A DNA stretch of 64,000 nucleotides, from positions 1,984,001 through 2,048,000 of the forward strand of contig CAVVPN010000003.1 in NCBI GenBank assembly GCA_963750165.1, written 5' to 3'. This DNA is from an uncultured Gemmataceae bacterium (lineage in GTDB: Bacteria; Planctomycetota; Planctomycetia; Gemmatales; Gemmataceae). The position numbers and the translations under genes are program-made. Of the stretch, positions 13,255 through 52,144 are shown in pieces. Below the pieces are notes generated by a model. It was not told the origin of the DNA, searched no databases, and was given only the letters and a program-made list of their open reading frames with translations. Every line of letters begins with the position of its first letter. The stretch's first letter is position 1.

Positions 13255-13423
13255 AAAAAAAAGCCGGCGTGGACGAACACCCTTGGTATTCGTCCACGCC
13301 GGCTTACTCGTCTAATGGGCCCCCCTGGCATGGCAGGGTTGCCCTTTAGTTAGTCTTCCGACGACTTCATAATGAAGTCTGTAGCGGAGCCGGTTGAAAG
13401 TTCACCAAGGCCCCGCAGTTTTT
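13255..13423 (-). ncRNA. Putative cis-regulatory leader RNA with intrinsic terminator, copy 1
   Basis: 17 bp perfect stem (13261-13277/13289-13305) plus U8 on the minus strand; upstream sequence conserved in three copies. Confidence 0.7.
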
Positions 13424-13451
13424 AATATACGCCTCTGACCAGGGAATGCAA
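13424..13451 (-). promoter_or_regulatory. sigma70-like promoter of leader copy 1
   Basis: TTGCAT-16 bp-TATATT; same position in all three copies. Confidence 0.6.
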
Positions 13452-16869: not shown

Positions 16870-16890
16870 AGCTTCCCCCTCTCGCAAGCA

Positions 16891-30168: not shown

Positions 30169-30420
30169 TCAGTCCAATCTCGCGAGATAGATCGAGATCA
30201 AGCGACGAAGCAATTCTCCCGTTGTCAGACCCACATGCGAAGCCGCCATTTCCAGTTCCATCAGCTGCCAGCTGGGCAAGAGCAAATCTAACTCCTTGAA
30301 AGATTCTTCTTCTTGCCCGTACGAGGTTCCGTTGGTAAGCCCGCGGCCCGTGCGCCGCAGTTCAAAAGCACGCACCGATTGGGCGTTCCGGTGGACCATG
30401 GCAGCATCCGATTCATCCAT
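30169..30420 (-). CDS. Small ribbon-helix-helix-like protein; first gene after leader copy 2
   Basis: ELDLLLPSWQLMELEMAASHVGLTTGELLRRLI; start uncertain. Confidence 0.5.
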   Translation of the reverse strand: MDESDAAMVHRNAQSVRAFELRRTGRGLTNGTSYGQEEESFKELDLLLPSWQLMELEMAASHVGLTTGELLRRLISIYLARLD

Positions 30421-30466
30421 GGGATTCGTCCAAGTGCTTTGTGGCCTTGCCGCGCCATCGCGAGCG

Positions 30467-30636
30467 AAAAAAAAGCCGGCGTGGACGAAGACCCTGAGGT
30501 ATTCGTCCACGCCGGCTTACTCGTCTAACGGGCCCCCCCTGGCACGGCAGGGTTGCCCTCTAGTTAGTCTTCCGACGACTTCAAATGAAGTCTATAGCGG
30601 AGCCGGTTGAAAGTTCACCAAGGCTCCCAATTTTTC
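30467..30636 (-). ncRNA. Putative cis-regulatory leader RNA with intrinsic terminator, copy 2
   Basis: Stem 30473-30489/30502-30518 plus U8; highly similar to copy 1. Confidence 0.7.
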
Positions 30637-30664
30637 AGTGTACGCCTCTGACCAGGGAATGCAA
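30637..30664 (-). promoter_or_regulatory. sigma70-like promoter of leader copy 2
   Basis: TTGCAT-16 bp-TACACT. Confidence 0.6.
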
Positions 30665-30900
30665 GCGGAGTTTAGCCGGAATCGCTCCCAATCCGACGCG
30701 AACCACGACGCGGCAATCACTTGCGGCAATTCCAAGGTGCGAGGATTATCTCACTTCGCGTCGCTGAGGTGGATTGCCCACCCGCGCGCGCTATCATAAT
30801 CTCCTGATGGACCACGAACCCCCACGAACCCTGGCTCCTGCCGTGCCTAAATGGCACCGTGCGGGCACCGACCGGGTCTGGAAACACTTTCGAGGTCACC

Positions 30901-31277
30901 ATGAAAACACGAGGCGAAATCGAAGCCGCCATCTGCGAAGGGATGGCACGCCTTCAACAGGAGTACATGGGCCGGGGACCCAAGGACATTCACGCCCACC
31001 TGTTTGGTGACCTTTTCCTGGTTCGCTTGCAGGGTGTCCTGACCCAGGCCGAAAAGCAACTGGTAAAGTCGGAGTCTGCCGAAAAGGTCGGGATCTGCTC
31101 AAAGAAGTCCGGGCGCAGCTAATCGAGACGGCGCGGCCGGTCCTGGAAGCAATGATCCAGGAGGCCACAGGCGTCAAGGTGTTGAGCCTGCACCACGACA
31201 TAAGCACCGTTACCGGCGAAGAGGTCGTGCTCTTCACCTTGGTTGCAACCCCTCCCTTCCGCGATGCAAAGAAGTAA
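30901..31277 (+). pseudogene. DUF2294 (MpsC-like) protein, frameshift near 31087
   Basis: MKTRGEIEAAICEGMARLQQEYMGRGPKDI; LHHDISTVTGEEVVLF follows in another frame. Confidence 0.85.
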
Positions 31278-31300
31278 TAGGCCCTTCCGGGCGGCGTCGC

Positions 31301-32578
31301 TTACGGGCTTTTCGCCGGCAGGGCAGGTCGCGGTCCCCACCCCTGTCCTTCCAGCCACGATAGCCCAAGGAAGAGCACCAGGCACCCGGCCACGTACTCC
31401 ACGAAGACTTCCGTCAACAACTGTTCGCGCGACCAGACCACGCTGAATCCGATGAGGAGGGCGAGGGTGACCGCCAGGGCCCCGATCGTGCGACCCCACG
31501 CCGGACGCGCCCGCTCCAAGAGATGGGCCATCATCCCGTAGACCGCCGCCCCCCGAAGCGGGGCCAACCCGGCGAAGCCAAAGGGCCAGGCCAAGGCCTT
31601 GGCCGGCTCGATGTCCTCGTGCCGGAGCAGGCCGAGGAGAACAAGTCCCACCCCTTCGCTGGCCACGAGGGCCCAGAGCAGCGCGGCGGCTTCTCGCCAC
31701 GGGCGGCCGTCGTACCACAATCGCAGCATGAAAAGAGCCACGACCGCAACCACGGCGGGGAGGCTTCCCAGATAGCTCCCACCGGTCGCCACGGCGTCGA
31801 GCCACGGGACGTGACGGTCCGCGATCCATTCCTTGACGTGCCGGTCCTCATTCGACGGCTCGGCGTGACGCTCGGCCACGATCACGACCACCGCCAGGCA
31901 GACCACGACGAGGACTGCCGCGACGACCCCTTGCCAGACCTGGGAGCGGAGCAGGCCATCCCACGAGCCTGCCGGCAGCCGCCGGACACGCCGCCACAGG
32001 TAGGGCAGCCCGAGAAGGACTATCGCGCAGCCCAGGATGATCAGCCCACCCCGGCCCAGCCACTTGTGGAGGACGTCCCAGCTCTGCCCGCAATAGTAGC
32101 CAAGCAAGGACATGCTCACGGCCCAGGCCACCGCGCCCCCCACGTTGGCCAGGAGGAAGCGCGGCCAGGCCATCCCCGAAGTACCCGCGGCCAACGCTGC
32201 CACCACCCGCAGACCGGCGATGAACCGGGAGAAGAAGATGGTCAACGTACCGTAGTGCTCGAAGTAGCCCTCGACAACCTGTAGGGTCCGGGGTGTCAGG
32301 AAGAGGAAGCGCTTGCTCTGCTGGAGCCGGCGCCGGGCCCAGCGCCGCCCGAGCCAGAAGCCCAGGTTGTCGCCCAGCACGGCGGCGATCGCGGTGACGA
32401 CCATGACGCAGACGAGGGAGAGCGGCGAGCCGGACCGGCTGGCGAGCAGGCTGGCCAACAGGACGGCGGTCTCGCCTGGTACCGGCAGCCCGGCGCTTTC
32501 CGCCAATACGGCGGCGAAGAGGACAGGGTAGCCATAGAGGCTGAGCCACCCAGCCAGGGCCTGGAAGTTCTCATCCAC
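31301..32578 (-). CDS. DedA family membrane protein with degenerate PAP2-like C-terminus, copy 1
   Basis: AESAGLPVPGETAV, GDNLGFWLGR, RFIAGLR; GTG start. Confidence 0.88.
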   Translation of the reverse strand: MDENFQALAGWLSLYGYPVLFAAVLAESAGLPVPGETAVLLASLLASRSGSPLSLVCVMVVTAIAAVLGDNLGFWLGRRWARRRLQQSKRFLFLTPRTLQVVEGYFEHYGTLTIFFSRFIAGLRVVAALAAGTSGMAWPRFLLANVGGAVAWAVSMSLLGYYCGQSWDVLHKWLGRGGLIILGCAIVLLGLPYLWRRVRRLPAGSWDGLLRSQVWQGVVAAVLVVVCLAVVVIVAERHAEPSNEDRHVKEWIADRHVPWLDAVATGGSYLGSLPAVVAVVALFMLRLWYDGRPWREAAALLWALVASEGVGLVLLGLLRHEDIEPAKALAWPFGFAGLAPLRGAAVYGMMAHLLERARPAWGRTIGALAVTLALLIGFSVVWSREQLLTEVFVEYVAGCLVLFLGLSWLEGQGWGPRPALPAKSP

Positions 32579-32600
32579 GGGTTTCCCCTTCGATCGGACC

Positions 32601-32858
32601 CTACCGCCTCTGCGGCGCCGCCCCAAACCACTGAATCAGACCGCAGTTGTCGCACATCAAGTTCGTGACTTTCTTCTCCGTCGCCCAGTTGAGGTGAGCG
32701 AACGAGATGCCCACGGTACTCAGCAGGGCCGAACCCTCAATGAGTTCTTCGGCATGGCAGTGAGGGCAGCGCACCGGAAGTCCACCGGCGACGAACCGGC
32801 TCGGACCTGGGTGGACGGCCGCATTCACATCCTGCGTGATCTCGTGCCAGATGCTCAT
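32601..32858 (-). CDS. Small Zn-ribbon protein
   Basis: CPHC...CDNCG. Confidence 0.65.
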   Translation of the reverse strand: MSIWHEITQDVNAAVHPGPSRFVAGGLPVRCPHCHAEELIEGSALLSTVGISFAHLNWATEKKVTNLMCDNCGLIQWFGAAPQRR

Positions 32859-32914
32859 GGGGTTTCTCTCTTCTTAGTTCATGCCTTGCCCGGCCACCCC
32901 GAGCCTCTCCGCCA

Positions 32915-33291
32915 TCATCCTTGGACGACCAGCAGGTCTGCATGGATCCACGCTTCGGCCTGCTCAGCCTCGCTAGTGCGGTCGAAGTACCGGATCGTGG
33001 CGGTGGTAAAAGGCTTGCAGAACACGGTCATGCCGTGCTCCCACGCTTTCTCGCCAACCAGAGCGAGGCGTTCGATGTCACGGAAGTGCTTCAGATCGAA
33101 CTTGATGTCCTGCCAGAGCGCACCGCCGTCCAGCCGTGGAAATCGTGCATTTGAACCAGCATCCGCAGCTTGCCGTGCTGCTTGACCAGACGCTCCACTT
33201 CCGGGATGAAACGCTCGTAGTCATCCTTTGTGAGCTTGCCCGTGAGGTTGATCACCAGAATCTTCCCATCCTCGTGCAAATCAACTGACAT
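32915..33291 (-). pseudogene. SpoIIAA-like (STAS/SEC14) protein, frameshift near 33122
   Basis: TGKLTKDDYE...DFHGWTA, then ALWQDIKFDLKHFRDIERLALVGEKAWE in another frame. Confidence 0.8.
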
Positions 33292-33348
33292 GACTCATCT
33301 CCTCAAATGCTTTGAAATCCCGTATCACACGTGATCACCGTAGCGCGG

Positions 33349-33573
33349 CTAACACACCTCGATCTCGTTTGCCAGGATAGGCAGGTCTGTTATTTCCATG
33401 ACTAAATGTTGGGCGAGTTGCTTGGCATGGTAGGTGCGCGCACTCCCGTGAAGGACAACCCCGTCGTTTCGACACAACACCCGAAGCTGACGAACGCGTG
33501 AGCCCAACCGAGTCTGAAGATGCGTCGCAAGCCGGGTTTCCTTTTCCGAGGTTCTGTCATCTACGTCTGTCAT
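33349..33573 (-). CDS. BON-domain-like small protein
   Basis: GVVLHGSARTYHAKQLAQH...LANEIEV. Confidence 0.7.
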   Translation of the reverse strand: MTDVDDRTSEKETRLATHLQTRLGSRVRQLRVLCRNDGVVLHGSARTYHAKQLAQHLVMEITDLPILANEIEVC

Positions 33574-33669
33574 CGTGATCTCCGTAGCGAAGTCCCTGGA
33601 GAATCTGTCCGGACTCCTCGAACTCGTGGGCCGACCGTCAGCCGGCCCACGAAGTGTCGCCTGGGAGCA

Positions 33670-33948
33670 CTACGCCTTGGTGGCCATCGCCGGAATATGC
33701 TTTCCGGATTCGATGGCCGTCGCCACGGTCTTGTCGTCCTTGGACGTGGTCACACGGACGCACGTCCCCGCCTTCAGGTCCGCGGCCTTGCTGGCCTTAC
33801 CGTCACAGGTCACCTTGGCGTCCTTGGCCATCGTGTGACAGTGCTGTTTGCCTTCGTTGCACGTCGTCGTGAGCTTGTCGCCTGCCACGCTGACGACTTT
33901 GCCTTCGTGCGTCTTGCCGTCGTGCGTCTTCGCGCAAGTTTCCGTCAT
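33670..33948 (-). CDS. Small beta-barrel hypothetical protein
   Basis: THEGKVVSVAGDKL...DAKVTCDGK..KAADLKAG; AAGGAG upstream. Confidence 0.7.
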   Translation of the reverse strand: MTETCAKTHDGKTHEGKVVSVAGDKLTTTCNEGKQHCHTMAKDAKVTCDGKASKAADLKAGTCVRVTTSKDDKTVATAIESGKHIPAMATKA

Positions 33949-34200
33949 AACAGTCTCCTTGAATGTGAAACGAACCCTTCGAGCAGACGCAACATGCGGC
34001 CGCCCAGACCAATGTGTGCCTCGTTGCGGGAGGGACAGCGGCGAGTCACCTCGCGAGTGCTGCCCATTTCGACCAGAGGCGGTCGAATTCAACCGCCACG
34101 CGTACGAGACGACGATGTCGTTCGGGACGCTGTTGACGCCTCGCCACGCGAAGGGCAGGCCCGGATGTTCCGGGCCTGCGGTGCATCGTTTCCCGATCTC

Positions 34201-34626
34201 TTACGCCGGCGCGGCTACTGGCGCTTTGGGCTGTTGGCCAGCCGGTGCCTTCCCACTAACGCGCGCAGCTGCCGGCAGCTCCCCTCCAGTTGCAATTGTT
34301 TTGGGCTTGGTTTCCGCGGCTCCCGATTTGATGGCGACTTTCACAGCATCTTCCATCGGATCTTTGAAGGGCACCTCGATCCGGAGGAGGCCGTTCTCGT
34401 AGGTCGCTTCGGCCTTGCCAGGCTTGACCGCCCAACCTAAAGCCAGTGCTGCAACATACTCGATGTCCCGTGCTGGCGCTGTCAGGTGAACGCTGTCTTC
34501 CAGGATCTTCACATCGATGGTATCCGATGGCGCTCCTGGGATGGCGAACTCCACAACCAGCTTGTGGTTCTCGCCGTCAGCATACGCCACGGTATCGGGC
34601 GCAACCTTCATTTGAAATTTCGGCAT
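34201..34626 (-). CDS. Hsp20/alpha-crystallin family protein
   Basis: AEATYENGLLRIEVP. Confidence 0.8.
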   Translation of the reverse strand: MPKFQMKVAPDTVAYADGENHKLVVEFAIPGAPSDTIDVKILEDSVHLTAPARDIEYVAALALGWAVKPGKAEATYENGLLRIEVPFKDPMEDAVKVAIKSGAAETKPKTIATGGELPAAARVSGKAPAGQQPKAPVAAPA

Positions 34627-34715
34627 TTTGACACTCTCCTTTTGGGTAACTGTTTACACACGATGCATGTGAACTTGTGGGGGTCTCCAGTTTGTGGCCC
34701 CCTCCAGAGGGACGG

Positions 34716-35474
34716 TTACTTCTTGCTAACCGCGAGCTTGAAATCGTGCTCAGCATCAGGACCATTGGACGGGTGTCCTGTGACTTTGATCGTGAAGTCG
34801 CCCGTGGCAGCATCGTCCGCAACCTTGACCATCAGTTTTGCTTCGGTCTCTCCGTGCTTGATGATCGGAGCGGCGGGATCGATGGTAACCCCTTTGGGCA
34901 TGTCGTCGAACTTGAGCGCGACGTCCTCGTCAAAGTGCTTATCGCGCTTGATGCTGATCGAGACCTCTTTCCTCTCACCCTGCTTGAGTCCGGTGGACGA
35001 AGATGGCACACTCAGTGTAAACGTGTCTTTCTTCTCCACGCTGATTTTGAATTCATTGGCGGCGTCAGCGCCCTTGGTCGGGTGGCCCGTCACCTTGACC
35101 ATAAAGTCACCCAGGGAGGCGTTCTGCCCGGCTTTAAGCATCAATTTCGCTTCCGTCTCCCCGTGCTTGATGACGGGAGCGGCGGGATCGATGGTAACCC
35201 CTTTGGGCAGCTCGTTGAACTTGAGCGTGACATCCTGGTCGAAGTTCTTGCCCCGCTTCAAGCTGATAACGACTTTGGCCGTCTCTCCCTGCTTGACGGT
35301 GGTTGAGTTGAGAGGCAGGTTGGAAGGCACGCTCAGATCGAACGTGTTGTCTGCTTCTCCATAGAGAGGTTTCTTTTGGTCCGAGCCGGCTCCCGGACCT
35401 CCCGGAGTGCCCTTATCGCAACCAGTAAGGGAGACCAGCGCCAGCACCAACAACACGGTTAATGAACTCTTCAT
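34716..35474 (-). CDS. Lipoprotein with two Ig-like repeats
   Basis: Lipobox LTGC; KQGE...PKGVTIDPAAP.IKHGETEAKLM occurs twice. Confidence 0.8.
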   Translation of the reverse strand: MKSSLTVLLVLALVSLTGCDKGTPGGPGAGSDQKKPLYGEADNTFDLSVPSNLPLNSTTVKQGETAKVVISLKRGKNFDQDVTLKFNELPKGVTIDPAAPVIKHGETEAKLMLKAGQNASLGDFMVKVTGHPTKGADAANEFKISVEKKDTFTLSVPSSSTGLKQGERKEVSISIKRDKHFDEDVALKFDDMPKGVTIDPAAPIIKHGETEAKLMVKVADDAATGDFTIKVTGHPSNGPDAEHDFKLAVSKK

Positions 35475-35629
35475 ACGGAAGCACCTTTCTGAACGCCGGA
35501 GCCGCATGTATTCACTATGTGTGAGATCCACGGGGCTCCGTAACAAGGTCGTTAGGAACAGCAAGTAGAAACTGAGATAACGCGGATTGCGTGGAGGGCT
35601 GGGGCCACCCGCCATTCGCTGCCATGCGG

Positions 35630-35791
35630 TTAGATTCTCCCCATGAGGACAAACACCAGGACGATCACCAGGATCAGTCCCAGGCCTCCGGTTGGCCCGT
35701 AACCCCAATTCCGGCTATGCCCCCAGGTCGGCAAGGCTCCCAGGATAAGCATGACCAGGAAGACCATCAGAATGATGCCTAGCAAAGACAT
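35630..35791 (-). CDS. DUF3309 family small membrane protein
   Basis: Manual translation MSLLGIILMVFLVMLILGALPTWGHSRNWGYGPTGGLGLILVIVLVFVLMGRI; too short for the ORF track. Confidence 0.85.
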   Translation of the reverse strand: MSLLGIILMVFLVMLILGALPTWGHSRNWGYGPTGGLGLILVIVLVFVLMGRI

Positions 35792-35836
35792 GAGAGATAC
35801 CTTTCATCGGTTAGAGAGTCCCCATAACACACCGCC

Positions 35837-36238
35837 CTAACGAACGCCATGTCGATGGCCTCGTTCCCCGTGATTCTGGAACATCCTGTTGTTGTCCCGG
35901 TAGTGGCTGTCCACGCTCGCCTGGCTCTCCTTGACGGCCTTCTCGGCGTCCAGCCTTTCATGCTCGTGACGCGCCTCCGAGCCGACCCGCCGGTCGGAGT
36001 TCTCATTCTTTCCTTCCACCAACTCTTGCTCCGCTTCCAGCCAGAACTGGACACCGTCCCCGGTCGGCTGTCCGGCGGCCTCCCATTTCTGGTAGGCACA
36101 AAGCCGAATGGCCTCCTCCGAAACCAACATTCCATGGTGGTTGTTGTCGCAGGAGGCAACGGCTGCCTTCATCGGAGTCGTCGATTGGTCTGGATGAGCG
36201 TCTGCCGGGACTGCATGTTTGTGGTGGCGTTTGGTCAT
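35837..36238 (-). CDS. DUF2934 domain protein
   Basis: EEAIRLCAYQKWEAAGQPTGDGVQFWLEAEQEL. Confidence 0.8.
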   Translation of the reverse strand: MTKRHHKHAVPADAHPDQSTTPMKAAVASCDNNHHGMLVSEEAIRLCAYQKWEAAGQPTGDGVQFWLEAEQELVEGKNENSDRRVGSEARHEHERLDAEKAVKESQASVDSHYRDNNRMFQNHGERGHRHGVR

Positions 36239-36275
36239 GATTTCGCTCCTTTGATCCCGAGAATAGCTGGAGTTG

Positions 36276-36788
36276 TTACTGTTGCGAATCCACGTGTCTG
36301 GTCTTGCTGTGCCGGTCCGCATCCTGGCTATGGTCGTGCGCGGAGGCAGCCTGCTTCGGGGCATTGACATCAAGATCGCCCGGTGCATTGCCGCTCCACG
36401 TTTCTGGAGGAGCACTGCCAGCCAGTTGGAAGACTTGCACAACATTACCGGTCGTGAACGCCTGCACGACGGCACCGCTTTTCGGCTCGATTTCCGCAGT
36501 CGCCTCGCGCACGTCCATCCCGGTGATTCTTCTGATCTCCTGCCGCAACGAGTCAGAGGAGTTGGCGAACAGTTGTCGGTGGAACTCCTGCATCTGAGCG
36601 GCACCTTCCGGAGTCTTGGCCAGGTTTCTTTCGGCCGGCGACAAGGCATCGTGAAGCGTGATCACCAGGGTTCCCTCGCTCAGGACCACGGTCACGGATT
36701 TGGGCACGTGGTTGCCCGTTCGTCGCTGCTCGAAAGCGATAGCCGCCTGGGCAATCTGTTGCGCCATGGTTGATTTGGCCCTGTCCAC
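36276..36788 (-). CDS. DUF2294 (MpsC-like) protein, divergent subtype; first gene after leader copy 3
   Basis: AFEQRRTGNHVPKSVTVVLSEGTLVITLHDALSPAERNL...IRRITG. Confidence 0.8.
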   Translation of the reverse strand: MDRAKSTMAQQIAQAAIAFEQRRTGNHVPKSVTVVLSEGTLVITLHDALSPAERNLAKTPEGAAQMQEFHRQLFANSSDSLRQEIRRITGMDVREATAEIEPKSGAVVQAFTTGNVVQVFQLAGSAPPETWSGNAPGDLDVNAPKQAASAHDHSQDADRHSKTRHVDSQQ

Positions 36789-36836
36789 TGAGGTTCCCCC
36801 TTCGTCCCCGGCAACCGTCGAGTACCACCGCGAGCG

Positions 36837-37004
36837 AAAAAAAAAGCCGGCGTGGCCGAACACCCCAAGGTATTCGACCACGCCGGCTTACTCGTCTGAC
36901 GGACCCCTCGGCACGGCCGGGTTGTCGTTCAGCTAGTCTTCCGACAAGATCAACCGAAGTCTTTTGCGGAGCCGGTAAAGAACCGAAACTCCCCTTCACC
37001 CTTT
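36837..37004 (-). ncRNA. Putative cis-regulatory leader RNA with intrinsic terminator, copy 3 (diverged)
   Basis: Stem 36844-36860/36873-36889 plus U9; its mismatch reads as G-U only on the minus strand. Confidence 0.7.
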
Positions 37005-37033
37005 AATGTACGCCTCGCGACGGGGAACGACAA
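37005..37033 (-). promoter_or_regulatory. sigma70-like promoter of leader copy 3
   Basis: TTGTCG-17 bp-TACATT. Confidence 0.55.
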
Positions 37034-37191
37034 GGGGAAGGCCGGGAAGGCCGGTGGATCATCGCCCCGCGCCCGGTATCATCATCCCTGGGACGGTCCG
37101 GGAACCGCAGGCCCGCATGCTCCTGCCGTGCCGTCCAGGCCCGGCGCTCGCGCGGGTGCCGAACAGGACTCGGAACGATTTGGAAGTTGCC

Positions 37192-37572
37192 ATGAAGACG
37201 CAGGGGGAAATCGAAGCCGGCATCTGCGAAGGGATGACGCGGTTTGAGCAGGAATACATGGGCCGGGGGCCCAAGGACATTCACGCCCACCTGATCGGTG
37301 ACCTGCTCGTGGTCCGCCTCCAGGGCGTCCTGACCGCAGCCGAACGGCAACTGGTCAAGACGCTGCCGACCGAAAAGGGGCGGAACCTGCTCAAAGAAGT
37401 CCGCACGCAGCTGATGGAAACGGCGCGACCGGTCCTGGAAGCGCTGGTCCAGGAGGTCACTGGCGTCAAGGCATTGAGCCTGCACCACGACATCAGCACC
37501 GTTACCGGCGAAGAGGTCGTGCTCTTCACCCTGTCCGGATCGCCTGCGTTCTGCGAAATGAAGAAGAAATAA
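37192..37572 (+). CDS. DUF2294 (MpsC-like) protein
   Basis: MKTQGEIEAGICEG..FEQEYMGRGPK...LHHDISTVTGEEVVLF. Confidence 0.9.
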   Translation: MKTQGEIEAGICEGMTRFEQEYMGRGPKDIHAHLIGDLLVVRLQGVLTAAERQLVKTLPTEKGRNLLKEVRTQLMETARPVLEALVQEVTGVKALSLHHDISTVTGEEVVLFTLSGSPAFCEMKKK

Positions 37573-37592
37573 GGCCCTCTGGGCGGCGTCGC

Positions 37593-38870
37593 TTACGGGC
37601 TTTTCGCCGGCAGGGCAGGTCGGGGTCCCCACCCCTGCCCTTCCAGCCACCACAGCCCGAGGAAGAGCACCAGGCCCCCCGCCACGTACTCCACGAGGAC
37701 TTCCGTCAACAGCTGTTCGTGCGACCAGACCACGCTGAATCCGATGAGGAAGGCGAGGGTGACCGCCAGGGCGCCGACCGTGCGACCCCACGCCGGGAGT
37801 GGCCGCTGGAAGAGATGTGCCATCATCCCGTAGACCGCCGCCCCTCGGAGCGGGGCCAACCCGGCGAAGCCAAAGGGCCAGGCCAGGGCCTTGGCCGGCT
37901 CGACGTCCTCGTGCCGGAGCAGGCCGAGGAGAACAAGTCCCACCCCTTCGCTCGCCACGAGGGCCCACAAGAGCGCGACCGCCTCCCGCCACGGGCGACC
38001 GTCCTGCCACAACCGCACCATGAAGAGCGCCACGACGGCAGCAACGGCGGGGAGGCTCCCCAGATAGCTCCCCCCGGTCGCCATGGCGTCCAGCCACGGA
38101 ACGTGCCGGTCCGCGATCCATTGCTCGACCTGCCGGTCCTCATTCGGCGGCGCGGGGTGACGCTCGGCCAGCATCACGATCACCTCCAGGCAGACCACGA
38201 CGAGGACTGCCGCGACGACCCCTTGCCAGACCTGGGAGCGGAGCAGGCGGTCCCATGAGCCGGCCGGCAGCCGCTGGACACGCCGCCACAGGTAGGGCAG
38301 CCCGAGAAGGAGGACCGCGCAGCCCAAGAGGATCAGCCCACCCCGGCCCAGCCACTTGTGCAGGGCGTGCCAGCTCTGCCCGCAGTAGTAACCCAGTAAA
38401 GACATGCTCACGGCCCAGGCCACCGCGCCCCCCGCGTTGGCCAGGAGGAAGCGCGGCCAGGCCATCCGCGAGGTGCCGGCGGCCAGCGCTGCCACCACGC
38501 GCAGCCCGGCGATGAACCGGGCGAAGAAGATGGTCAAGGTGCCGTAGTGCTCGAAGTAGCCCTCGACAACCAGCAAGGTTCGGGGGGTCAGGAAAAGGAA
38601 GCGCTTGCCCTGCTGAAGCCGGCGCCGAGCCCAGCGCCGCCCGAGCCAGAAGCCCAGGTTGTCGCCCAGCACGGCGGCGACGGCGGCGACGACCATGACC
38701 CAGACGAGGGAGAGCGGCGAGCCGGGCCGGCTGGCGAGCAGGCCGGCCAGAAGGACGGCGGTCTCACCGGGTACTGGCAGCCCGGCGGTTTCTGCGAGTA
38801 CGGCGGCAAAGAGGATAGGGTAGCCATAGAGGCTGAGCCACCCGGCCAGGGCCTGGAAGATCTCATCCAC
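37593..38870 (-). CDS. DedA family membrane protein with degenerate PAP2-like C-terminus, copy 2
   Basis: Close paralogue of 31301-32578. Confidence 0.88.
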   Translation of the reverse strand: MDEIFQALAGWLSLYGYPILFAAVLAETAGLPVPGETAVLLAGLLASRPGSPLSLVWVMVVAAVAAVLGDNLGFWLGRRWARRRLQQGKRFLFLTPRTLLVVEGYFEHYGTLTIFFARFIAGLRVVAALAAGTSRMAWPRFLLANAGGAVAWAVSMSLLGYYCGQSWHALHKWLGRGGLILLGCAVLLLGLPYLWRRVQRLPAGSWDRLLRSQVWQGVVAAVLVVVCLEVIVMLAERHPAPPNEDRQVEQWIADRHVPWLDAMATGGSYLGSLPAVAAVVALFMVRLWQDGRPWREAVALLWALVASEGVGLVLLGLLRHEDVEPAKALAWPFGFAGLAPLRGAAVYGMMAHLFQRPLPAWGRTVGALAVTLAFLIGFSVVWSHEQLLTEVLVEYVAGGLVLFLGLWWLEGQGWGPRPALPAKSP

Positions 38871-39312
38871 GGCTTCCCCTTGATCGGGCTTTCGGGAGTC
38901 TCACGATCGCGCCATTCCTTTTGCCGATGCGGACGGCGGCGGTGCGGACCTTGTCGGCGAGTTTCGTTTCGAGCAGGTCGTAATTGAAGCCGATGACGAC
39001 CAACTCGCCCTTGGGCTGTTTGGCCACGGTTTGCTCTCCGGTGCAGGCGATGGTTTTGCTGCCGTGGGCGGATACCGTTAACTGCGTCTACCTCTCTACA
39101 CATCTGCCGTTGTTTCGGCAACGCCTGGTTTTGCTTGGGGGAATCGTGGCAATTGTTCCTTCGGGTGATTTCAGAGCGCGTGAAAAGAAGACGCTTGTAT
39201 CGATGCGCCAGCTGGCGGCCCAAAGCTCGCCGTACAGAAGGGTTGACGCACCGCCTGGGAAGTCCGCAGCGGCTGTCCGACCATCAACCGTTTCAAGGCT
39301 TCCACCATGCGG

Positions 39313-40167
39313 CTACCCGAAGCGAGGCGCTCCGGCCAGGGAAAAGATGACCACTTCTTCGCCGGTCACGGTGCTGATGTCATGGTGCATACTCAACACC
39401 TTGACGCCAGTGACCTCGTGGACCAGAGATTCCAGCATCGGGCGTGCCAACTCCAGCAGTTGCTTCCGTACTTGCTTGATGAGATCCCTTCCTTTCTCCG
39501 GCGACAACGATTTGCCGAGTTGGCGTTCGGCCAGCGTCAAAACACCTTGAATGCGGACCACCAGGAGGTCTTTGATGAGATGGGTGTGGATGTGCTCCGA
39601 CCGCCATCCCAGATACTCCTCTTGAAAGCGAATGATCCCATCACAGATCGCCGCCTCGCACTCTGCTTGCGTAAGGGTTTTTGACTTGCGCTCGTTCCTG
39701 ATTCGTCGAGCTTCGTCAATCGGCAAGCGCCGCTCTGCTCCGACACCCGCACGCTCTTTCGCCCGTTTTGGCGCTTGGCCCGCACCTGAGACCGCGACAC
39801 TGGCTAAGACCGCTTTTATTTCTGTCAGAGCAACGGGCTTGACGAGGACTGCATCGCACCCGGCCTTCATCGCCGAGGATCTGTGTTCCTCGTCTTTCTG
39901 GCCTGTGATGGCCACGATTTTCGTTTGAGCGAAGGCACGAATCTGGCGAAAGCGCGTAACGAGACCACAGCCATTCATGTCAGGCATGACCAAATCGACC
40001 AGCATCAGATCCGGCCGAAATGCGGTTGCAACTTCCAGTGCCTTCGCCCCGCCATAGGTCACATGCACCTGGTTGCCGAGTTCCTCAATCAGCAAACCCA
40101 AGGCGTCAGCGCCGTCGCGGTTGTCATCAACTACGAGAACCCGAAGAGTCTTATCGGTCGCAGGCAT
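39313..40167 (-). CDS. Response regulator: receiver domain + DUF2294 output domain
   Basis: VLVVDD, LVDLVMP, AITG and LVKP, then KTLTQAECEAAICDG...HHDISTVTGEEVVIF. Confidence 0.88.
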   Translation of the reverse strand: MPATDKTLRVLVVDDNRDGADALGLLIEELGNQVHVTYGGAKALEVATAFRPDLMLVDLVMPDMNGCGLVTRFRQIRAFAQTKIVAITGQKDEEHRSSAMKAGCDAVLVKPVALTEIKAVLASVAVSGAGQAPKRAKERAGVGAERRLPIDEARRIRNERKSKTLTQAECEAAICDGIIRFQEEYLGWRSEHIHTHLIKDLLVVRIQGVLTLAERQLGKSLSPEKGRDLIKQVRKQLLELARPMLESLVHEVTGVKVLSMHHDISTVTGEEVVIFSLAGAPRFG

Positions 40168-40242
40168 AAGGTCCTTTCCTTTCGCGAGCCTACGGCTTTG
40201 GTGATGCCAGAACCGCAAGTCATCATCGCCGCTCCGTGGGCA

Positions 40243-43200
40243 TCACGTCGCCTTCTCCGGGACGCTCGCCAGTATTTCCTGCACCTTCTCGAACTTGGCG
40301 GGTTTGACCAGGAAGTGATCGAACCCGGCTTCCTGCGAACGCCGCCGGTCTGACTCCTTCCCGTAGCCCGTCATGGCAACCAGGACGACCCTCTGGAAAA
40401 CCGGTTGCTGACGCATCCTCTTCGCTACCTCATAACCGTCGAGCCCCGGCAAGCCAATGTCCAACAGGGCCACGTGAGGCCGGTAGTCGAGGGCCGCTTC
40501 CAGCGCGGTCGGGCCGTCTGGAGCCGTCCGAACATCATGCCCTGACTCCGTCAAGAGCAGCGCTAAACTCGCAGCCGTATCTGCGTTGTCATCAACCACC
40601 AGCACCCGCAAGGATGGTCCGGTCGGTTTGGCCGTTTCAGTAGGAGGCGACGGCGGCTGCGGTTCGGCTGTCAGCACCACCGGCAGGCGCACGACGAACT
40701 CGCTGCCTTGCCCCAAAGCACTGGAGGCCGCCACCTTTCCTCCGTGCATTGCCACAATCCGTTGCACCAACGCCAGCCCAATGCCCAACCCGCCTTGCGA
40801 GCGGGCCAGGGATCGTTCGGCTTGCGTGAACAAGTCGAAGATGCGTGGCAGGAGGTCGGGGGCGATGCCGACGCCCGAATCCCGCACTTGCAGCACAGCT
40901 TCATTGCCCTCTTGTTGAAGGCTCAGCCCAATCTGACCGCCTTCGTCCGTGTATTTCGCGGCGTTGTTGAGCAGGTTAACGACCACCTGGACCAGACGGG
41001 TCGAGTCGCCGTCGATCCAAATGGGCGAAGGCGGGAGATGCACGGCGAGGGTGTGCCGACGCTGCTCGATCATGGAACGAACCGTCTCTACGCCATCTTC
41101 CACAATGGCCCGCATGTCCAATTGCTCCCGCCGGAGATGAATCCTACCCGTCGAAAAGCGGGACACTTCCAAAAGATCATCGACCAGATGGACCAGTTGC
41201 CCAACTTGACGCTCAATGATCATCCCGGCCTGTTGCAGAAGCCCGCTCTCGCCCCGCCGAAGCTGAAGAAGTTGCACAGCGTTCAAGATGGGGGCAAGGG
41301 GGTTGCGGAGTTCGTGCGACAGCATCGCCAAGAACTCGTCCTTGCGGCGGTCGGAGTCCCGTAGCTTGTTCAGCAGCCGCAGCCGCTCGTAGGCCACCGC
41401 GACGTAGTGGGCGACGGTTTGCAGAACGGCCAGTTCGTCGGGATCGAACTCGTCCCTCGTCCGGCTGGCGAAGGAGAGCGTGCCGATCAGCAGTTTGTCG
41501 GACATCAGCGGGTTGCAGGCGTAAGCCCGGAGGCCGAACGACTTGGCCAACTGGGCCTTCGGGTCGTCGGTCTGCTGGATGTGGGTCGCCACGATGGGCT
41601 GGCGCTGCAAGGCCACCATGCCGCAGATGTGTTGGCCGAACTTCAGCCGCTCGATGGAACGGGCCGTGTCTTCGGGGATGCCGACGTACGATGCCAGCCG
41701 CAGGGCATCGCCGCTATCGTCCACCATGTAATTGAAGTAAGCGTCCACGCCAAGCGGCGGGCCGATCTTGTCGAGCAGGCCGTGCAGCATGGCGTCTGGG
41801 GCGCCGGTGGACAGCAGCACTCCCGCCGCCTCCCAGAGGAGATGCAACCGCTCGTTCTGGGTCTTGACGGCGGCTTCGGCGCGCTTGCGGTCGGTCATGT
41901 CCACCAGCATCACGACCACGCCGTCAATCTTGTTCTCCAGGGTCCGATACGGGCGAAGGCGCAAGGAGTACCAGCGGCCGCCCTTGTCCCGGACATCACA
42001 CTCCTTGGTGCTGACCGTGTCGAACACCTCCGCCAGGAGCAGCTCCAGGTCGGGGAGGTCGTCGAGGTTGTGCATGATGTCGGCCAACGGCCGGCCCAGG
42101 GCGGCGGGGCCAAGGTTAAGCAGCTTCTCCGCTGCCGGCGTGAACCGCCGCACACACAGGTCCGGCCCAAGCATGACGATGGCCATCTGGACGCTGCCGA
42201 GCAGGTTGACGAGGTCGTTGTTGACCCGGTTCAGCTCCGCGTTGCGGTTGTTCAGCTCGTCGTTGACGGTGGCCAGCTCTTCGTTGCTCGACTGGATCTC
42301 CTCCTTGGAGGTTTCCAGCTCTTCGTTCGTGCTTTGCAGCTCTTCGTTGGCCGACTGGACCTCCTCGTTGGCGGATTGCAGTTCCTCGTTGGCGGCCTCC
42401 TGCTGCTCGATCAACGATTGCAGATACTCGCGCGTGGCGGATAACTCTTGCGCCAGGCGTGCGTTGTCAGGGTCTGGCGAGCCGGGTTGCGTTTGCACCC
42501 GGAGCGCTGCTTCGCTCGCATCTCCTGCGAGAGCTGACGGCGCCTTGCTCGCCTGGGACGAATCTTCGAACAGGACCAGGAAGCCGCCTTCCTTTCCCCC
42601 GCTACCCTTAATCGGAATCACTTCGATAGCGACCTCGCGGTAGCCGCCGTTGGACTTGACGCGCAAGCCCTCCTCCCGCACCGGAGCCTGCTCCTTGCCC
42701 GCCCGGAGGACGGCCGCGCGGACGGCGACGAGCAGTCCTTCACGGAGCATCTTCAGCAGGCTCAGGCTGGCCTTGCCGGGGGACGGCGCCAGGTACGGGC
42801 CGGTGTCGCCGCGGTATTGCAGGATGTCCAGGTCGGCGGTGACGAGCACGCCGGGCGGGGCGAACTTGGCCGAGAGGACGCGGTCCGCCTCCCGGTGCAG
42901 GTCCGCGCCGTCGTTCGGCCGCGCCGTGATGGGCGTGAACGGGGACTGTAGTGCCCCGCCGTGTTGCAGTGGGAAATGGCCGTGCCCCGGACCGGAACCC
43001 GGTTTCCTGGAGTAGATCTTGTGCTTGGCATCCTCCGCCTCGAACAGGTTCCGGTAGGTGCCGATCGTCTCCGAGCCGCCCAGCCACAGGCAACCCGCCG
43101 GCTTGAGCGCATAGTGCAGGGTCGGCACGATCTTCTGTTGCAGCACCGGCTCCAGGTAGATGAGCAGGTTGCGGCAGCTAATCAGGTCGATGCGCGAGAA

Positions 43201-44472
43201 AGGCGGGTCGGCCAGCACGTTGTGCCGGGAGAAGACGCAGGCATCGCGGATCGACTTGCTGATCCGGTAGCTGCCGTCCACCTCGGTGAAGAATCGCCGC
43301 AGGCGTTCCGGCGAAACGTCCTGGGCGATGTCCTTTGAGTAGACGCCCGCGCGGGCTTTCTCGATGCCCGCGGGGTTCAGGTCGGTGGCGAAGAGCTGGA
43401 GCGGCACGGAGCTGCCCGCGGCCTCGGCGGCCTCCGCGAACACCATTGCCAGGGAGTACGCTTCCTGCCCGGTCGAGCAGCCAAGCGTCCAGAGCCGCAC
43501 CGGGTCCTGCCGGGACCGGTCTTTGAGCAAGCGAGGGAACACTTTGCTTTTGAGCGCCTCGAACGACTCCTTGTCGCGGAAGAAGCTGGTGACGCTGATC
43601 AGGATGTCCTGGTACAGGGCGTCCACTTCGGCCGGCGTCTCGCGCAGGAACCGCACGTATTCGGGCAGCGTGTCCATCTTCTGAAAGACCATGCGGCGGG
43701 TGACGCGGCGGAAGAGGGTGTTGAACTTGTAGTGGGTGAAATCGACGCCGGTGGCGTGGTGGAGCAGTTGCACGACCTCGGCGAGGTTCGGCTTGTCGTC
43801 CGTCTCCCGGGCCTCCGCCACCGGCGCCGCATACGGGTGTTGACTGATGCGGACGATCTCCCGGGCGATCCCGTCCGGAGGCAGCACGAAGTCCACGCAC
43901 CCGGAGGCGATGGCGCTGTGCGGCATCCCCTCGTGCTGGGCCGTCGCGTCCTGGGCGAAGGTGATGCCGCCCTCCCCCTTGATCGCTTCCAGGCCGACGG
44001 TTCCGTCCGAGGCCGTGCCGGACAGAACCACACCGATGGCCTGGTGCCGCCGGTCTTCCGCCAGCGCGCGGAAGAACTGATCCACCGGCCGGTGCAGCCC
44101 GCCCTCGCGCGGCAGGAGCTGCAACGCCCCGCGGACGAGGATCATGCTTCGGTCAGGCGGGATTACGTAGACGTGGTTCGGCTCGACCGTCGCCTCTTCG
44201 TTAACCTCCATGACCGGCATTTTCGTTGCCCGCGACAGGATTTCCGCCAGGGCGCTGGGATGCGTGGGCGCCAGGTGCTGCACCAGGACGAAGGCCATGC
44301 CGGTATCGGCCGGCAGCGCCTTGAGCAGTTGCGTGAACGCCTCCAGCCCGCCGGCCGAGGCGCCGACGCCGACAATCGGGAACGCCTCGCCTTCGACCAG
44401 CACGTCGCATTCGTCCGCGGCATCGTTCGCCGCCGGCGATTCAGGAAGTTGGTCGGCTGGCGTTTTTGTCAT
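40243..44472 (-). CDS. CheB-CheR-PAS-GAF hybrid histidine kinase with C-terminal receiver
   Basis: GASAGG, VTSFFRD, GCSTGQEAYS, ISCRNLLIY, EELQS coiled coil, GAF, MLSHELRNPL, VDDN...DIGLP. Confidence 0.95.
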   Translation of the reverse strand: MTKTPADQLPESPAANDAADECDVLVEGEAFPIVGVGASAGGLEAFTQLLKALPADTGMAFVLVQHLAPTHPSALAEILSRATKMPVMEVNEEATVEPNHVYVIPPDRSMILVRGALQLLPREGGLHRPVDQFFRALAEDRRHQAIGVVLSGTASDGTVGLEAIKGEGGITFAQDATAQHEGMPHSAIASGCVDFVLPPDGIAREIVRISQHPYAAPVAEARETDDKPNLAEVVQLLHHATGVDFTHYKFNTLFRRVTRRMVFQKMDTLPEYVRFLRETPAEVDALYQDILISVTSFFRDKESFEALKSKVFPRLLKDRSRQDPVRLWTLGCSTGQEAYSLAMVFAEAAEAAGSSVPLQLFATDLNPAGIEKARAGVYSKDIAQDVSPERLRRFFTEVDGSYRISKSIRDACVFSRHNVLADPPFSRIDLISCRNLLIYLEPVLQQKIVPTLHYALKPAGCLWLGGSETIGTYRNLFEAEDAKHKIYSRKPGSGPGHGHFPLQHGGALQSPFTPITARPNDGADLHREADRVLSAKFAPPGVLVTADLDILQYRGDTGPYLAPSPGKASLSLLKMLREGLLVAVRAAVLRAGKEQAPVREEGLRVKSNGGYREVAIEVIPIKGSGGKEGGFLVLFEDSSQASKAPSALAGDASEAALRVQTQPGSPDPDNARLAQELSATREYLQSLIEQQEAANEELQSANEEVQSANEELQSTNEELETSKEEIQSSNEELATVNDELNNRNAELNRVNNDLVNLLGSVQMAIVMLGPDLCVRRFTPAAEKLLNLGPAALGRPLADIMHNLDDLPDLELLLAEVFDTVSTKECDVRDKGGRWYSLRLRPYRTLENKIDGVVVMLVDMTDRKRAEAAVKTQNERLHLLWEAAGVLLSTGAPDAMLHGLLDKIGPPLGVDAYFNYMVDDSGDALRLASYVGIPEDTARSIERLKFGQHICGMVALQRQPIVATHIQQTDDPKAQLAKSFGLRAYACNPLMSDKLLIGTLSFASRTRDEFDPDELAVLQTVAHYVAVAYERLRLLNKLRDSDRRKDEFLAMLSHELRNPLAPILNAVQLLQLRRGESGLLQQAGMIIERQVGQLVHLVDDLLEVSRFSTGRIHLRREQLDMRAIVEDGVETVRSMIEQRRHTLAVHLPPSPIWIDGDSTRLVQVVVNLLNNAAKYTDEGGQIGLSLQQEGNEAVLQVRDSGVGIAPDLLPRIFDLFTQAERSLARSQGGLGIGLALVQRIVAMHGGKVAASSALGQGSEFVVRLPVVLTAEPQPPSPPTETAKPTGPSLRVLVVDDNADTAASLALLLTESGHDVRTAPDGPTALEAALDYRPHVALLDIGLPGLDGYEVAKRMRQQPVFQRVVLVAMTGYGKESDRRRSQEAGFDHFLVKPAKFEKVQEILASVPEKAT

Positions 44473-44725
44473 GGGGAGTTCTCCGTCGGCAGTGCCGCTG
44501 CCAGTGCCGTCGCCAGCACTGCCACGAGTCGCCCCCCCCCCACCTGAATTTGTGTACATCATCGTTTCCACGGCTGTATTCCCTTCAACCACCTGGCGAC
44601 GACAAGAGGAAGAAATGCGATCAGTATATCGGATCGTGCCGCTGACGGACACGCTCGCCACGGGCGGTCCACGGCGCTCGCGCATTGGGAACAGGTGATG
44701 GGGCAGGCGAAAAAGTGCGTTAAGC

Positions 44726-45140
44726 ATGATCCGAAGTAAAAGTAACCAAACCGCAGAGAAACGGGTCGCCAGCGTCTTGATCGTTGATGATCACCCGGCC
44801 GTCCGCGAGGCCCTAACCATCCGATTGTCTCGCGAACGCGACCTGGACGTTTGCGGCGACGCAGCCGATGTCACCGAAGCCTTACGGGTGTTCGACGCCA
44901 CCAACCCCGATGTGGCCGTCATCGACATCTCGCTCAAGGGCGGCGACGGCATCGACCTGATCAAGCGGATCAAGGCACGCAACGATTCCGGCTGTTGATT
45001 TGGTCCATGTATAGCGAGAAGCGAGAGCCTCTGTGCCGAGCGGGCTTTGCCAGCCGGAGCGCTGGGCTACATCAACTAAGGAACAGGCGACCGATCAGAT
45101 CATCTTGGCGATTCGCCGCGTGCCGTACAGAAGCGATGAG
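44726..45140 (+). pseudogene. NarL-type response regulator remnant
   Basis: VLIVDDHPAVRE and DISL, then frameshifted LIWSMYSE and GALGYIN; no HTH. Confidence 0.75.
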
Positions 45141-45379
45141 CTTTCAGGTAGGGACGGTGCGGCCCGGTCGGCATAACGCTTGTAGGGCCTTTCTGTGGAC
45201 CTGCAAAGGGCTATTGGATTGCAGGGTTCGGTACTCTTTCGGTGGGTGAAGGGTGGACTCTGTGGCGCGGCCTTTTTGTCCCGGTGGCTGTTTCGGCGAG
45301 CCCCTCGTTGCTTCCGTGCGGTACAGGCCAGGCTCTCGCGCCGGTGCAGTACAGGACACTTAACGATTGGGAGGTTGCC

Positions 45380-45760
45380 ATGAAGACGCAGGGTGAAATC
45401 GAAGCCGGCATCTGCGAAGGCATGGCGCGGTTTGAGCAGGAATACATGGGCAGGGGGCCCAAGGACATTCACGCCCACCTGATCGGTGACCTGCTCGTGG
45501 TCCGCCTCCAGGGCGTCCTGACCGCGGCCGAACAGCAACTGGTCAAGACGCTGCCGGCCGGGAAGGGGCGGAACCTGCTCAAAGAAGTCCGGACGCAGCT
45601 GATAGAAACGGCGCGACCGGTCCTGGAAGCGCTGGTCCAGGAGGTCACCGGCGTCAAGGTGTTGAGCCTGCACCACGACATCAGCACTGTTACCGGCGAA
45701 GAGATCGTGCTCTTCACCCTGGCCGGATCGCCTGCGTTCCGGGAAACGAAGAAGAAATAG
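45380..45760 (+). CDS. DUF2294 (MpsC-like) protein
   Basis: Near-identical to 37192-37572. Confidence 0.9.
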   Translation: MKTQGEIEAGICEGMARFEQEYMGRGPKDIHAHLIGDLLVVRLQGVLTAAEQQLVKTLPAGKGRNLLKEVRTQLIETARPVLEALVQEVTGVKVLSLHHDISTVTGEEIVLFTLAGSPAFRETKKK

Positions 45761-46409
45761 GCCCTTCAAAGGCTGCCACAAACATTTGTCGTCTGTGACC
45801 AAGGCGAGACTTCTGGCGGGTGAGTTCCTTGCCGCCCCGGGCCATCGGCTCGGCCGCCTCGGTGTCGTGGGTTTGGTCTCCTCCGCGCCGCTGGTACTTT
45901 GGTGGTACTTTGGTGGTTGCGGGCTTTAGCGGGCCCGACAAGCGGCGCCGATCTTGCAGATGATATAGCGTGCGGCCCCCAACGCGCGACGGTACAACAC
46001 CAGCTTTGCTGATCAACACCTCGGGAAGGCCTCGGGAAGGCCCGGGGCAAAGTGAACGCAAGCACCCAGCCGGATTCCGACGGTGACCAGCCAAATCCAG
46101 ATCAGGCGGGCTGCGCGCTTGTCGGTGGGAGTACGAGGCGCCCTTCGACGCCGCACCTATTCATAGCATCGACGACGGTATACCTTCGAGCACGGCGCTG
46201 GCCGGTCCAAGCGACCGCCTGAATCCAGGTCAGGCGCGCCTTCCTTGTCAGACATAGAGAAGGGCATTGCCTGGCGCGTCTCGGTCAAGGAGATTGGACA
46301 GCCGAAGTGGGACCGAGGTACTTCATCCGGGCGAACTCATCCCGGCCTCTGAAGAATTGCCGAGAGCTTTTCCTCACCAGCCCTGCGAGACAAAATGGTA
46401 AAGCAGAGG

Positions 46410-49992: not shown

Positions 49993-50330
49993 TTTCGTTC
50001 CTTCGGTTACGCCAACCCTCCCTCACCGGACTTTCGGGAAGGGGGGATCGACTGTTGTTTCGCCCCTTTTGAACAACAGTCGATCCCCCCTTCCCGAATA
50101 CGGCGAAGCCGACAATAATGCCGAGCGAAGCGAGACCGCTGGTTGCCGCCGGATCGGGCCGGAGACGGAAGCAGGAAGCATGACAGGGGTGCTGTTTCCC
50201 TGGCATGCTTCCTGCGTGTCGGAGGACCGACCGCCGGGAGAGAAAAAGGCCGGGCGAAGCCCGACCTCAGAGAGGCTTTCCAGATGCGATGGCGAAGACC
50301 CTTCCGTGTGGTCTCAGCCATCGCGGCATG

Positions 50331-51712: not shown

Positions 51713-52144
51713 GGTGTTTCCTCCGTGTTGTTGCGTGTCACGACTATCCGCGCCGGATGTTACGCCTTTTAGAGCCCGCACCCGCGCTGATGAATCATCC
51801 TTCCGTTGGCCCCGCCTCCAGAAAACCGCTTTTTCGGCGGAAGGTGGGCTTTTTTTGCTGTTCGTCACTTCTGACAGCAAAAAAAGCCCACCTTCTGACG
51901 AAGAACGGCGAAGCCGAAAAGATAAGGCCGGGCGAAGCCCGACCTTGTAGATGCCGCCGGATCGCGACGGAGGCGAAAAGCACGGGACATGACGGGCGGC
52001 TTTTTGCCCGGCGTGGCCCGTGCGGGCCGGAGGAGGGCCGCCGGCCGGTAAGTGGTCAGGCGAAGCCTGACGATTGGGTCCCGTCGCAGCATTCGCTCCG
52101 GGGACGTCACCTGGCGTTACTTGGTCCCTCCCGCTTGCGCCGTG

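Follow-up and report, generated by a model that had tools for sequence, protein, structure and literature searches.

DUF2294 genes and leader RNAs of the window

The window analyzed here is a 64,000-nucleotide stretch from the genome of an uncultured Gemmataceae bacterium (assembly GCA_963750165.1, contig CAVVPN010000003.1, positions 1,984,001 to 2,048,000), and it carries genes of the MpsC/DUF2294 family (PF10057) together with copies of a conserved leader RNA. A preliminary description of this DNA had listed five DUF2294-like genes within 15 kb; all five matched PF10057 in Pfam (38–125 bits, against a cut-off of 23), with the corrections that one is broken and that the count is inflated by duplication. 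The genes are of three kinds: clade A (30901..31277, 37192..37572 and 45380..45760, all on the forward strand), a clade A domain fused to a response-regulator receiver (REC) domain (39313..40167, reverse strand), and clade B (36276..36788 on the reverse strand from a GTG at 36788, or from an ATG at 36767). The gene at 37192 is intact and is our candidate antiterminator, while the REC fusion has its phospho-acceptor Asp. The clade B gene is 29% identical to A and formed a separate, supported branch when 68 of 187 sequences were placed in a quick tree.

Local duplication (30768–32597 against 37053–38887, 87% identity; 37123–37578 against 45311–45765, 93%) produced three of the five copies, and sequence comparison identified 45380, which has no leader, as a recent duplicate of 37192. 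A truncated REC gene (44726–44998) and a DedA 3' fragment (45766–45861) flank 45380 and mark the ends of a partial duplication. The gene at 30901 matches PF10057 in two pieces (profile positions 1–59 and 69–109), because the assembly lacks 1 nt in an AAAAGG run near 31085, which breaks the reading frame. Its halves differ from 37192 at 20 synonymous and 24 non-synonymous codons and are thus still close to it, indicating that the frameshift is either recent or an assembly error.

Three leader copies lie on the reverse strand of the window, each consisting, in order, of a sigma70-like promoter, a hairpin of about 65 nt with conserved purine-rich internal loops, and an intrinsic terminator. Copy 1 spans 13255..13451 with its promoter and terminator (leader about 13255–13364). 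In copy 2, the conserved hairpin, which is the antiterminator fold, occupies 30512..30578 and the terminator 30467..30518, behind a putative promoter TTGCAT-16-TACACT at 30637..30664 that has about the same spacing in copies 1 and 3. The corresponding elements of copy 3 are at 36883..36947 (hairpin), 36837..36889 (terminator) and 37005..37033 (putative promoter TTGTCG-17-TACATT). As had been noticed from the letters alone, copies 2 and 3 are divergent from DUF2294 genes, the hairpins starting about 250–330 nt from the ATG of 30901 and 37192, and copy 3 directly precedes the paralog 36276, with about 50–70 nt between them.

The whole genome (G000; 9.6 Mb, 93% complete) contains 8 DUF2294 genes and 8 leader copies, all confined to two regions of contig C3. 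Every leader copy lies within 22 kb of a DUF2294 gene, a zone that makes up 1.7% of the genome, so this proximity is not due to chance. The second region holds another complete module (G000:C3:538762-553400; loci L001 and L002) in which DUF2294-A and DUF2294-B diverge from the two sides of a leader and a csrA gene follows about 3 kb downstream; a further leader, 14 kb off, stands immediately ahead of a csrA. The reported lack of MpsA and MpsB transporter genes in the window extends, for DabA/MpsB (PF10070), to the whole 93%-complete genome, which gave no match; MpsA was not searched for.

Two mutually exclusive folds of the leader

A pattern scan of a species collection recovered at least 137 leader loci; among the matches listed, 133 carried Planctomycetota titles, 3 were on one 'delta proteobacterium' contig and 1 was on a 1.5-kb Silvibacterium contig. 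The 5' arm of the terminator doubles as the 3' strand of the hairpin base, so that the two folds are mutually exclusive. In an alignment of 145 leaders both folds were 94% paired, compared with 27–51% in slid controls, and double-change cells numbered 100 for the antiterminator (21 in shuffles) and 312 for the terminator (72 in shuffles). Because the scan pattern itself fixed most bases of both basal helices, support for these helices was taken from a hand-picked alignment of 22 sequences, which gave 17 double-change cells against 5. Folding made the terminator dominant in all 145 full leaders, by a median margin of 10.3 kcal/mol, while the antiterminator base was formed in 139 of the 145 nascent leaders. 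By this prediction the terminator is the more stable fold and the antiterminator the first to form, from which the leader would be off by default and need a stabilizing factor for read-through.

No Rfam 15 family matched the window at gathering score, the best hit having an E-value of 4.1 on copy 2. Judged by this comparative evidence, the leader is a real attenuator RNA that has not been cataloged and is tightly paired with DUF2294. A leader-peptide mechanism is unlikely, the AUG of GGAUGAC being present in just 86 of the 145 leaders, and we set aside the icd-II and carA motifs, described in PMC8632094 as beta-proteobacterial and acting at the ribosome-binding site. Two soil RNA runs, with contigs of related organisms, covered the leader and DUF2294-B, with ends and levels not readable there; public sequencing runs matched at most 17% of words. 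The candidate protein and the leader RNA are both small, at 126 aa and 115 nt.

Coupling of the leader and DUF2294 across genomes

The co-occurrence of leader and protein held in both directions, among relatives, in a phylum sample and at metagenome loci. All 9 leader-positive genomes among 40 relatives had DUF2294, and none of the 23 relatives without DUF2294 had a leader (8 had DUF2294 only); in a sample of 150 phylum genomes the figures were 3 of 3 and 0 of 137, with 10 having DUF2294 only. Taken together, DUF2294 was present in 12/12 leader-bearing genomes and the leader in 0/160 genomes without DUF2294, absences that are soft, as the searches scored just 24–111 leader candidates per genome.

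The position of the genes is equally informative. With 700 nt of flank, clade A was divergent from the leader in 30 of 117 cases and upstream in tandem in 6. Close A relatives were located at 80 metagenome loci; at 58 of them the upstream sequence was at least 400 nt long, and 48 of the 58 showed a divergent leader, at 114 to 665 nt from the A gene, with clade B as the next gene in 24/42. Of 114 leaders, 25 were followed first by clade B, 3 by csrA and none by clade A; clade A, lying outside the leader and never first behind it, is therefore in the position of a regulator and not of a target, and the frequency of clade B supports the suggestion that the circuit feeds back on its own paralog.

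This layout, DUF2294-A and DUF2294-B on either side of a promoter and leader, often with csrA, recurs across Planctomycetota, in records titled Gemmataceae, Isosphaeraceae, Pirellulales and Phycisphaerae among the matches listed, and the pairing is also found in Bacillota. The pairing is thus not a by-product of segmental duplication, the refutation that the preliminary description had foreseen. Duplication accounts for the local copy number, with three of five window copies (87–93% identity) generated in this way, but as a cause of the adjacency it is contradicted by conservation across phyla, and we give it next to no credence.

With a broader leader model (R3), all matches under E 1e-6 fell in DUF2294-positive genomes or in genome G191, which has only a relic, most of these matches being the model's own training sequences. 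A further twelve weak matches (E 0.001–0.01) lay in genomes without DUF2294; inspection of nine showed a real leader in one case, in genome G346, and a plain terminator or coding DNA in the other eight. This blind match lies directly behind a C-terminal DUF2294 relic overlooked by Pfam, which found no DUF2294 in G346 or G191. Both genomes confirm the positional link and also show leaders outliving the gene, which fits either a recent loss or a protein-independent switch. In a 150-genome sample of the phylum of G192, DUF2294 occurred only on G192's own 1.5-kb contig, which is probably misbinned, and one viral-contig scan found no relative.

Solitary form and its targets

Where a genome has a single DUF2294 gene, of the broader group, this gene is in most cases followed immediately by a promoter and by a diverged leader whose terminator overlaps it. 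When 16 DUF2294-A loci were inspected by eye, seven had the same core and five only the promoter and the AGGCCG terminator arm; those solitary-form leaders that were folded mostly gave the same two states. The genes behind them encode PEPCK (4 loci by Pfam), SbtA (2 loci), SulP, ICD, DUF4914 and Usp, and the wider DUF2294 family is likewise tied to CO2/bicarbonate genes. Among 150 genomes of the phylum of G191, five were DUF2294-positive, and in all five the gene was followed by a leader with promoter and terminator, two of these leaders being scored by the Planctomycetota-built model (E 1.5e-6 and 0.002); their targets, by eye, were ICD, SbtA, Usp, HtpX and an unnamed protein.

In the Bacillota, the sole model match in the 2.6 Mb of Acetoanaerobium lies about 20 nt behind the sole DUF2294 gene and has a compensatory change in the base helix. 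Anoxybacillus has, by eye, a similar hairpin between DUF2294 and sbtA, unscored by the Planctomycetota-built model, and in S. pettenkoferi DUF2294 is the last gene of a dabBA operon, and in the leader of this operon a terminator is present but no recognizable core.

Several further observations concern these loci. In other lineages, a very diverged second, B-like DUF2294 (L183:6010-6399, L292:604-924 and L282) lies between the leader and PEPCK or SbtA, suggesting that the order of leader followed by paralog arose more than once. At L181:4652-6682 the leader target is DUF4914, in the place otherwise held by PEPCK, a hint that DUF4914 acts in carboxylation. In L282 and L283, from two related genomes, a second conserved stretch starting CCCAACGGCGCAAGGG follows or replaces the leader downstream of DUF2294.

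Genes behind the leaders in Planctomycetota

The families that recur behind the leaders are DUF3309, DUF1328, DUF5670, CsbD, YflT, ferritin-like proteins, Hsp20, DUF3185, BrkB/YihY, csrA and DUF2294-B. CsbD and YflT are general-stress families, and the recurrence bears out the earlier suggestion of a general-stress regulon. In the window, copy 1 is followed on the reverse strand by a ferritin-like gene (12635–13138) and YflT (12054–12632), and DUF2294-B by a block of stress-type genes on the same strand (33349..36238), with DUF2934 (35837–36238), an Ig-like lipoprotein, Hsp20 (34201–34626) and BON (33349–33573), which from their orientation are probably co-transcribed.

Two of the seven csrA genes of the genome lie behind leaders. 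A query with the module-type CsrA (L001:12471-12644), which has an insertion in its N-terminal strands, found it in 3/9 leader-positive relatives and in 0/31 others, and this csrA paralog belongs to the leader/DUF2294 module. In some genomes (L042, L061, L006/L030) leaders are back-to-back or clustered, up to four in 3 kb, and one second leader copy (L318, G387:C142:35773-35860) is remote from DUF2294, ahead of the Na+/H+ antiporter gene mnhE.

The DUF2294 protein

The predicted structure of 37192 (pLDDT 89) has the order alpha-beta-beta-alpha-alpha-beta-beta. A sequence search of the PDB gave no match, and thus no solved relative. Clade A conserves the motifs GRGP, VRLxGVLT, G..L.K..R..L and HxDIST.TGE, including the Arg of GRGP, the Arg of VRL and the K..R of helix 3; the K..R and HxD residues are missing from clade B. 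A Protein Atlas search with a clade B homolog returned PF10057 clusters only, and a complex prediction for A and B, which scored 0.01 and had no controls, was used neither way.

REC domains were present in 62 of the best 120 of 332 longer homologs, and in all 26 longer homologs aligned by BLAST the REC domain was N-terminal and kept the phospho-Asp. The frequency of these fusions, with the REC domain in front and its Asp kept, marks the DUF2294 domain as a response-regulator output.

Proposed mechanism

We propose that DUF2294 is the trans-acting factor of a new antitermination system, working in the manner of ANTAR or HutP proteins without being an ANTAR member, and we regard this as rather probable. 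Since the clade A gene is not under leader control, is adjacent to the leader in two geometries and in at least three phyla, and keeps this place while the targets change, the simplest cause of the pattern would be that its product operates the leader, a role that the comparative evidence supports well. The leader would act as a transcription attenuator, with termination as the default. Clade A of DUF2294, alone or fused to REC, would bind the nascent hairpin, directly or via a partner, and stabilize the antiterminator, allowing RNA polymerase to read through into the stress genes; given the predicted default-off fold, the sign of regulation would be activation. The REC form would be activated by phosphorylation, with input from an adjacent kinase, and the free form by a small signal, for which CO2/bicarbonate is a guess drawn from the targets of the solitary form. 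The elements behind the leader, csrA and clade B, may provide feedback. For clade B, where the K..R and HxD residues of A are missing, a modulating or antagonistic role is more probable than that of a second activator.

A wider proposal, which we put forward tentatively and hold to be somewhat less probable than not, joins these elements. DUF2294/MpsC/YbcI would be a new antiterminator domain that binds RNA and has an RNA class of its own, as well as, next to ANTAR, a second type of response-regulator output that acts on RNA. Ancestrally it would have been a CO2/bicarbonate sensor that switched carboxylation and bicarbonate-uptake genes; in Planctomycetota it would have been duplicated into an activator (A), a feedback paralog (B) and a kinase-driven REC form, which jointly run a general stress regulon by attenuation and not by an alternative sigma factor.

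Several results weigh against a role of DUF2294 as antiterminator. The structural model of 37192 clearly matches no RNA-binding fold: Foldseek returned nothing at E ≤ 0.001, and the VIA-align matches were at noise level (best Z 6.4), with RbfA at Z 5.3 (rmsd 4.0, 88 aligned) and 3gku at Z 4.6 while unrelated folds scored higher. The protein is not basic, with a median pI of 6.5 in clade A and 5.8 in clade B. The first leader model was unmatched in 8 of the 17 DUF2294-positive relatives, four of the 16 DUF2294-A loci inspected by eye had no leader downstream, and the Fisher p-values for co-occurrence (9e-5 and 5e-4) are overstated, as kin are not independent. G346 has an intact-looking promoter and leader before an hdrA-like gene with only the DUF2294 relic in front, and G191 (1.5 Mb) has three intact leaders and only a clade A relic, at the divergent position. 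Finally, an S. aureus mpsC deletion is described in PMC6689103 as growing normally at air CO2, where a defect would be expected if the protein were an essential activator of mpsAB.

Alternative explanations

The leader might instead be a riboswitch that responds to bicarbonate, an ion or a metabolite independently of any protein, with DUF2294 serving the same physiology and traveling along. Highly conserved purine-rich internal loops would suit a ligand pocket, the CO2 theme is common to the solitary-form targets, and the leaders of G346 and G191 have outlived the DUF2294 gene. However, a riboswitch does not readily account for a clade A gene that is free of leader control yet adjacent in two geometries, or for a protein pairing that stays constant while the targets shift from CO2 to general-stress genes; moreover, the REC fusions require an output target, and the RNA is a single unbranched hairpin. 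We therefore consider this explanation unlikely, though still to be taken seriously.

The effect of DUF2294 could also be indirect: it might bind DNA and activate the adjacent promoter, or it might be a sensor with control over RNA polymerase or over some other RNA-binding protein by which the leader is read. Divergent or upstream placement is equally typical of transcription factors, a REC fusion is compatible with any output, and a protein that is not basic and matches no RNA-binding fold would be less surprising in such a role. Yet it is the RNA hairpin that is conserved among the 8 genome copies while the promoter flank is variable, the distance from A to the leader ranges from 114 to 665 nt, and no third gene is constant across loci, all of which make an indirect role improbable.

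A third candidate is the csrA paralog of the module, which might operate the leader via the GGA in its 5' arm. The CsrA site consensus is ANGGA. Genes for csrA occur within 2 kb behind 11 of 72 leaders and directly behind copy 5 of the genome, GGA is present in 141/145 leaders (though the scan pattern demanded it), and it can occupy a small hairpin loop in the terminated state. The full ANGGA consensus was found in 0/145 leaders, however, many diverged leaders read GGCAGAU and have no GGA, and with the query used the module-type CsrA was present in just three of nine leader-positive relatives, leaving this explanation very little probability.

Other features of the window

The REC-DUF2294 gene 39313 starts 25 nt downstream of a co-oriented hybrid kinase gene (40243..44727, reverse strand) with the domains CheB-CheR-PAS-GAF-HisKA-HATPase-REC, whose adjacency makes it a candidate cognate kinase. 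The first gene behind leader copy 2 is an 83-aa open reading frame of no known family (30169..30420), followed by a histidine kinase (29149–29979), both on the reverse strand. DedA/VTT membrane proteins are encoded on the same strand at 31301..32626, duplicated together with DUF2294-A, and at 37593..38870. Upstream of leader copy 1, positions 14647–16887 encode a cytochrome b fused to several cytochrome c domains. Near-perfect long inverted repeats with arms of 27–53 nt (11939–12003, 50033–50098, 51830–51905 and 52145–52327) are unrelated to the leader.

Comparison with known systems

To our knowledge, only a handful of protein families operate terminator leaders. If the proposed mechanism is correct, it would give a function to a widespread uncharacterized family that includes MpsC of S. 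aureus and YbcI of B. subtilis, would identify a general-stress regulon in planctomycetes, and would offer a testable route by which non-autotrophic bacteria adjust bicarbonate-uptake and carboxylation genes. According to PMC6689103, S. aureus mpsA is down-regulated at 5% CO2, and a 2026 preprint on B. subtilis describes the mechanisms by which such genes are adjusted as still to be explored (10.64898/2026.09.08.750065). Our literature search found no paper on a regulatory role of DUF2294 or on the leader RNA, though the supplement of PMC11109978, with about 100 protein-binding candidates, might hold the motif.

MpsC of the S. aureus mpsABC locus and YbcI belong to the same Pfam family as DUF2294, PF10057, and share its link to inorganic-carbon genes. 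Unlike the mpsABC locus, this genome has no MpsB/DabA, and only loci of the Planctomycetota type showed clade B and the stress regulon. In B. subtilis, ybcI presumably lies in the ndhF operon. PMC2965217 lists a 158-nt RNA, ncr181, upstream of ndhF, with adaB on its other side. Since MpsC is dispensable for MpsAB activity and growth according to PMC6689103, the Pfam name does not describe a role in transport.

The BglG/SacY/LicT proteins, whose CAT domains act on RAT elements, also offer a protein-stabilized hairpin that overlaps the 5' arm of a terminator. RAT elements are hairpins with internal loops. DUF2294, in contrast, has no CAT or PRD domain by Pfam, its hairpin is longer and its genes lack a sugar-PTS context; the leader had no Rfam match, and RAT sequences were not compared directly.

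In the B. subtilis hut operon the gene of HutP, a small alpha/beta regulator, stands immediately ahead of the terminator (PMC12591593), an order that resembles the solitary arrangement of DUF2294, leader and target. In the window, however, the regulator gene is divergent from the leader. The RNA target of HutP is a set of single-stranded NAG repeats, and the protein melts the terminator, whereas the DUF2294 leader has a conserved structured alternative hairpin and its own promoter. DUF2294 had no PDB sequence match, and HutP and ANTAR were not among the fold matches listed, which for HutP does not imply exclusion.

A close parallel in organization is with the ANTAR regulators (EutV, AmiR and NasR; PF03861), to which the preliminary description had likened the circuit. 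Both have a small output domain that occurs alone or behind REC, and both have a regulon of several operons whose leaders combine an intrinsic terminator with a mutually exclusive upstream fold (PMC3369931 and PMC12591593). As an analogy the comparison stands; as a claim of membership it fails on both domain and RNA. By Pfam, none of the five DUF2294 proteins has an ANTAR domain, their predicted fold being alpha/beta, and the genome's two ANTAR genes are far from every leader. ANTAR RNAs consist, according to PMC3369931, of two tandem hairpins with hexaloops that have A at position 1 and G at position 4, whereas our leader is one long hairpin with internal loops, and a dual hexaloop was present in just 1 of the 145 leaders. 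The DUF2294 regulon further differs in containing a paralog of DUF2294 itself, while the mutually exclusive fold and the REC fusion are features that the two systems share.

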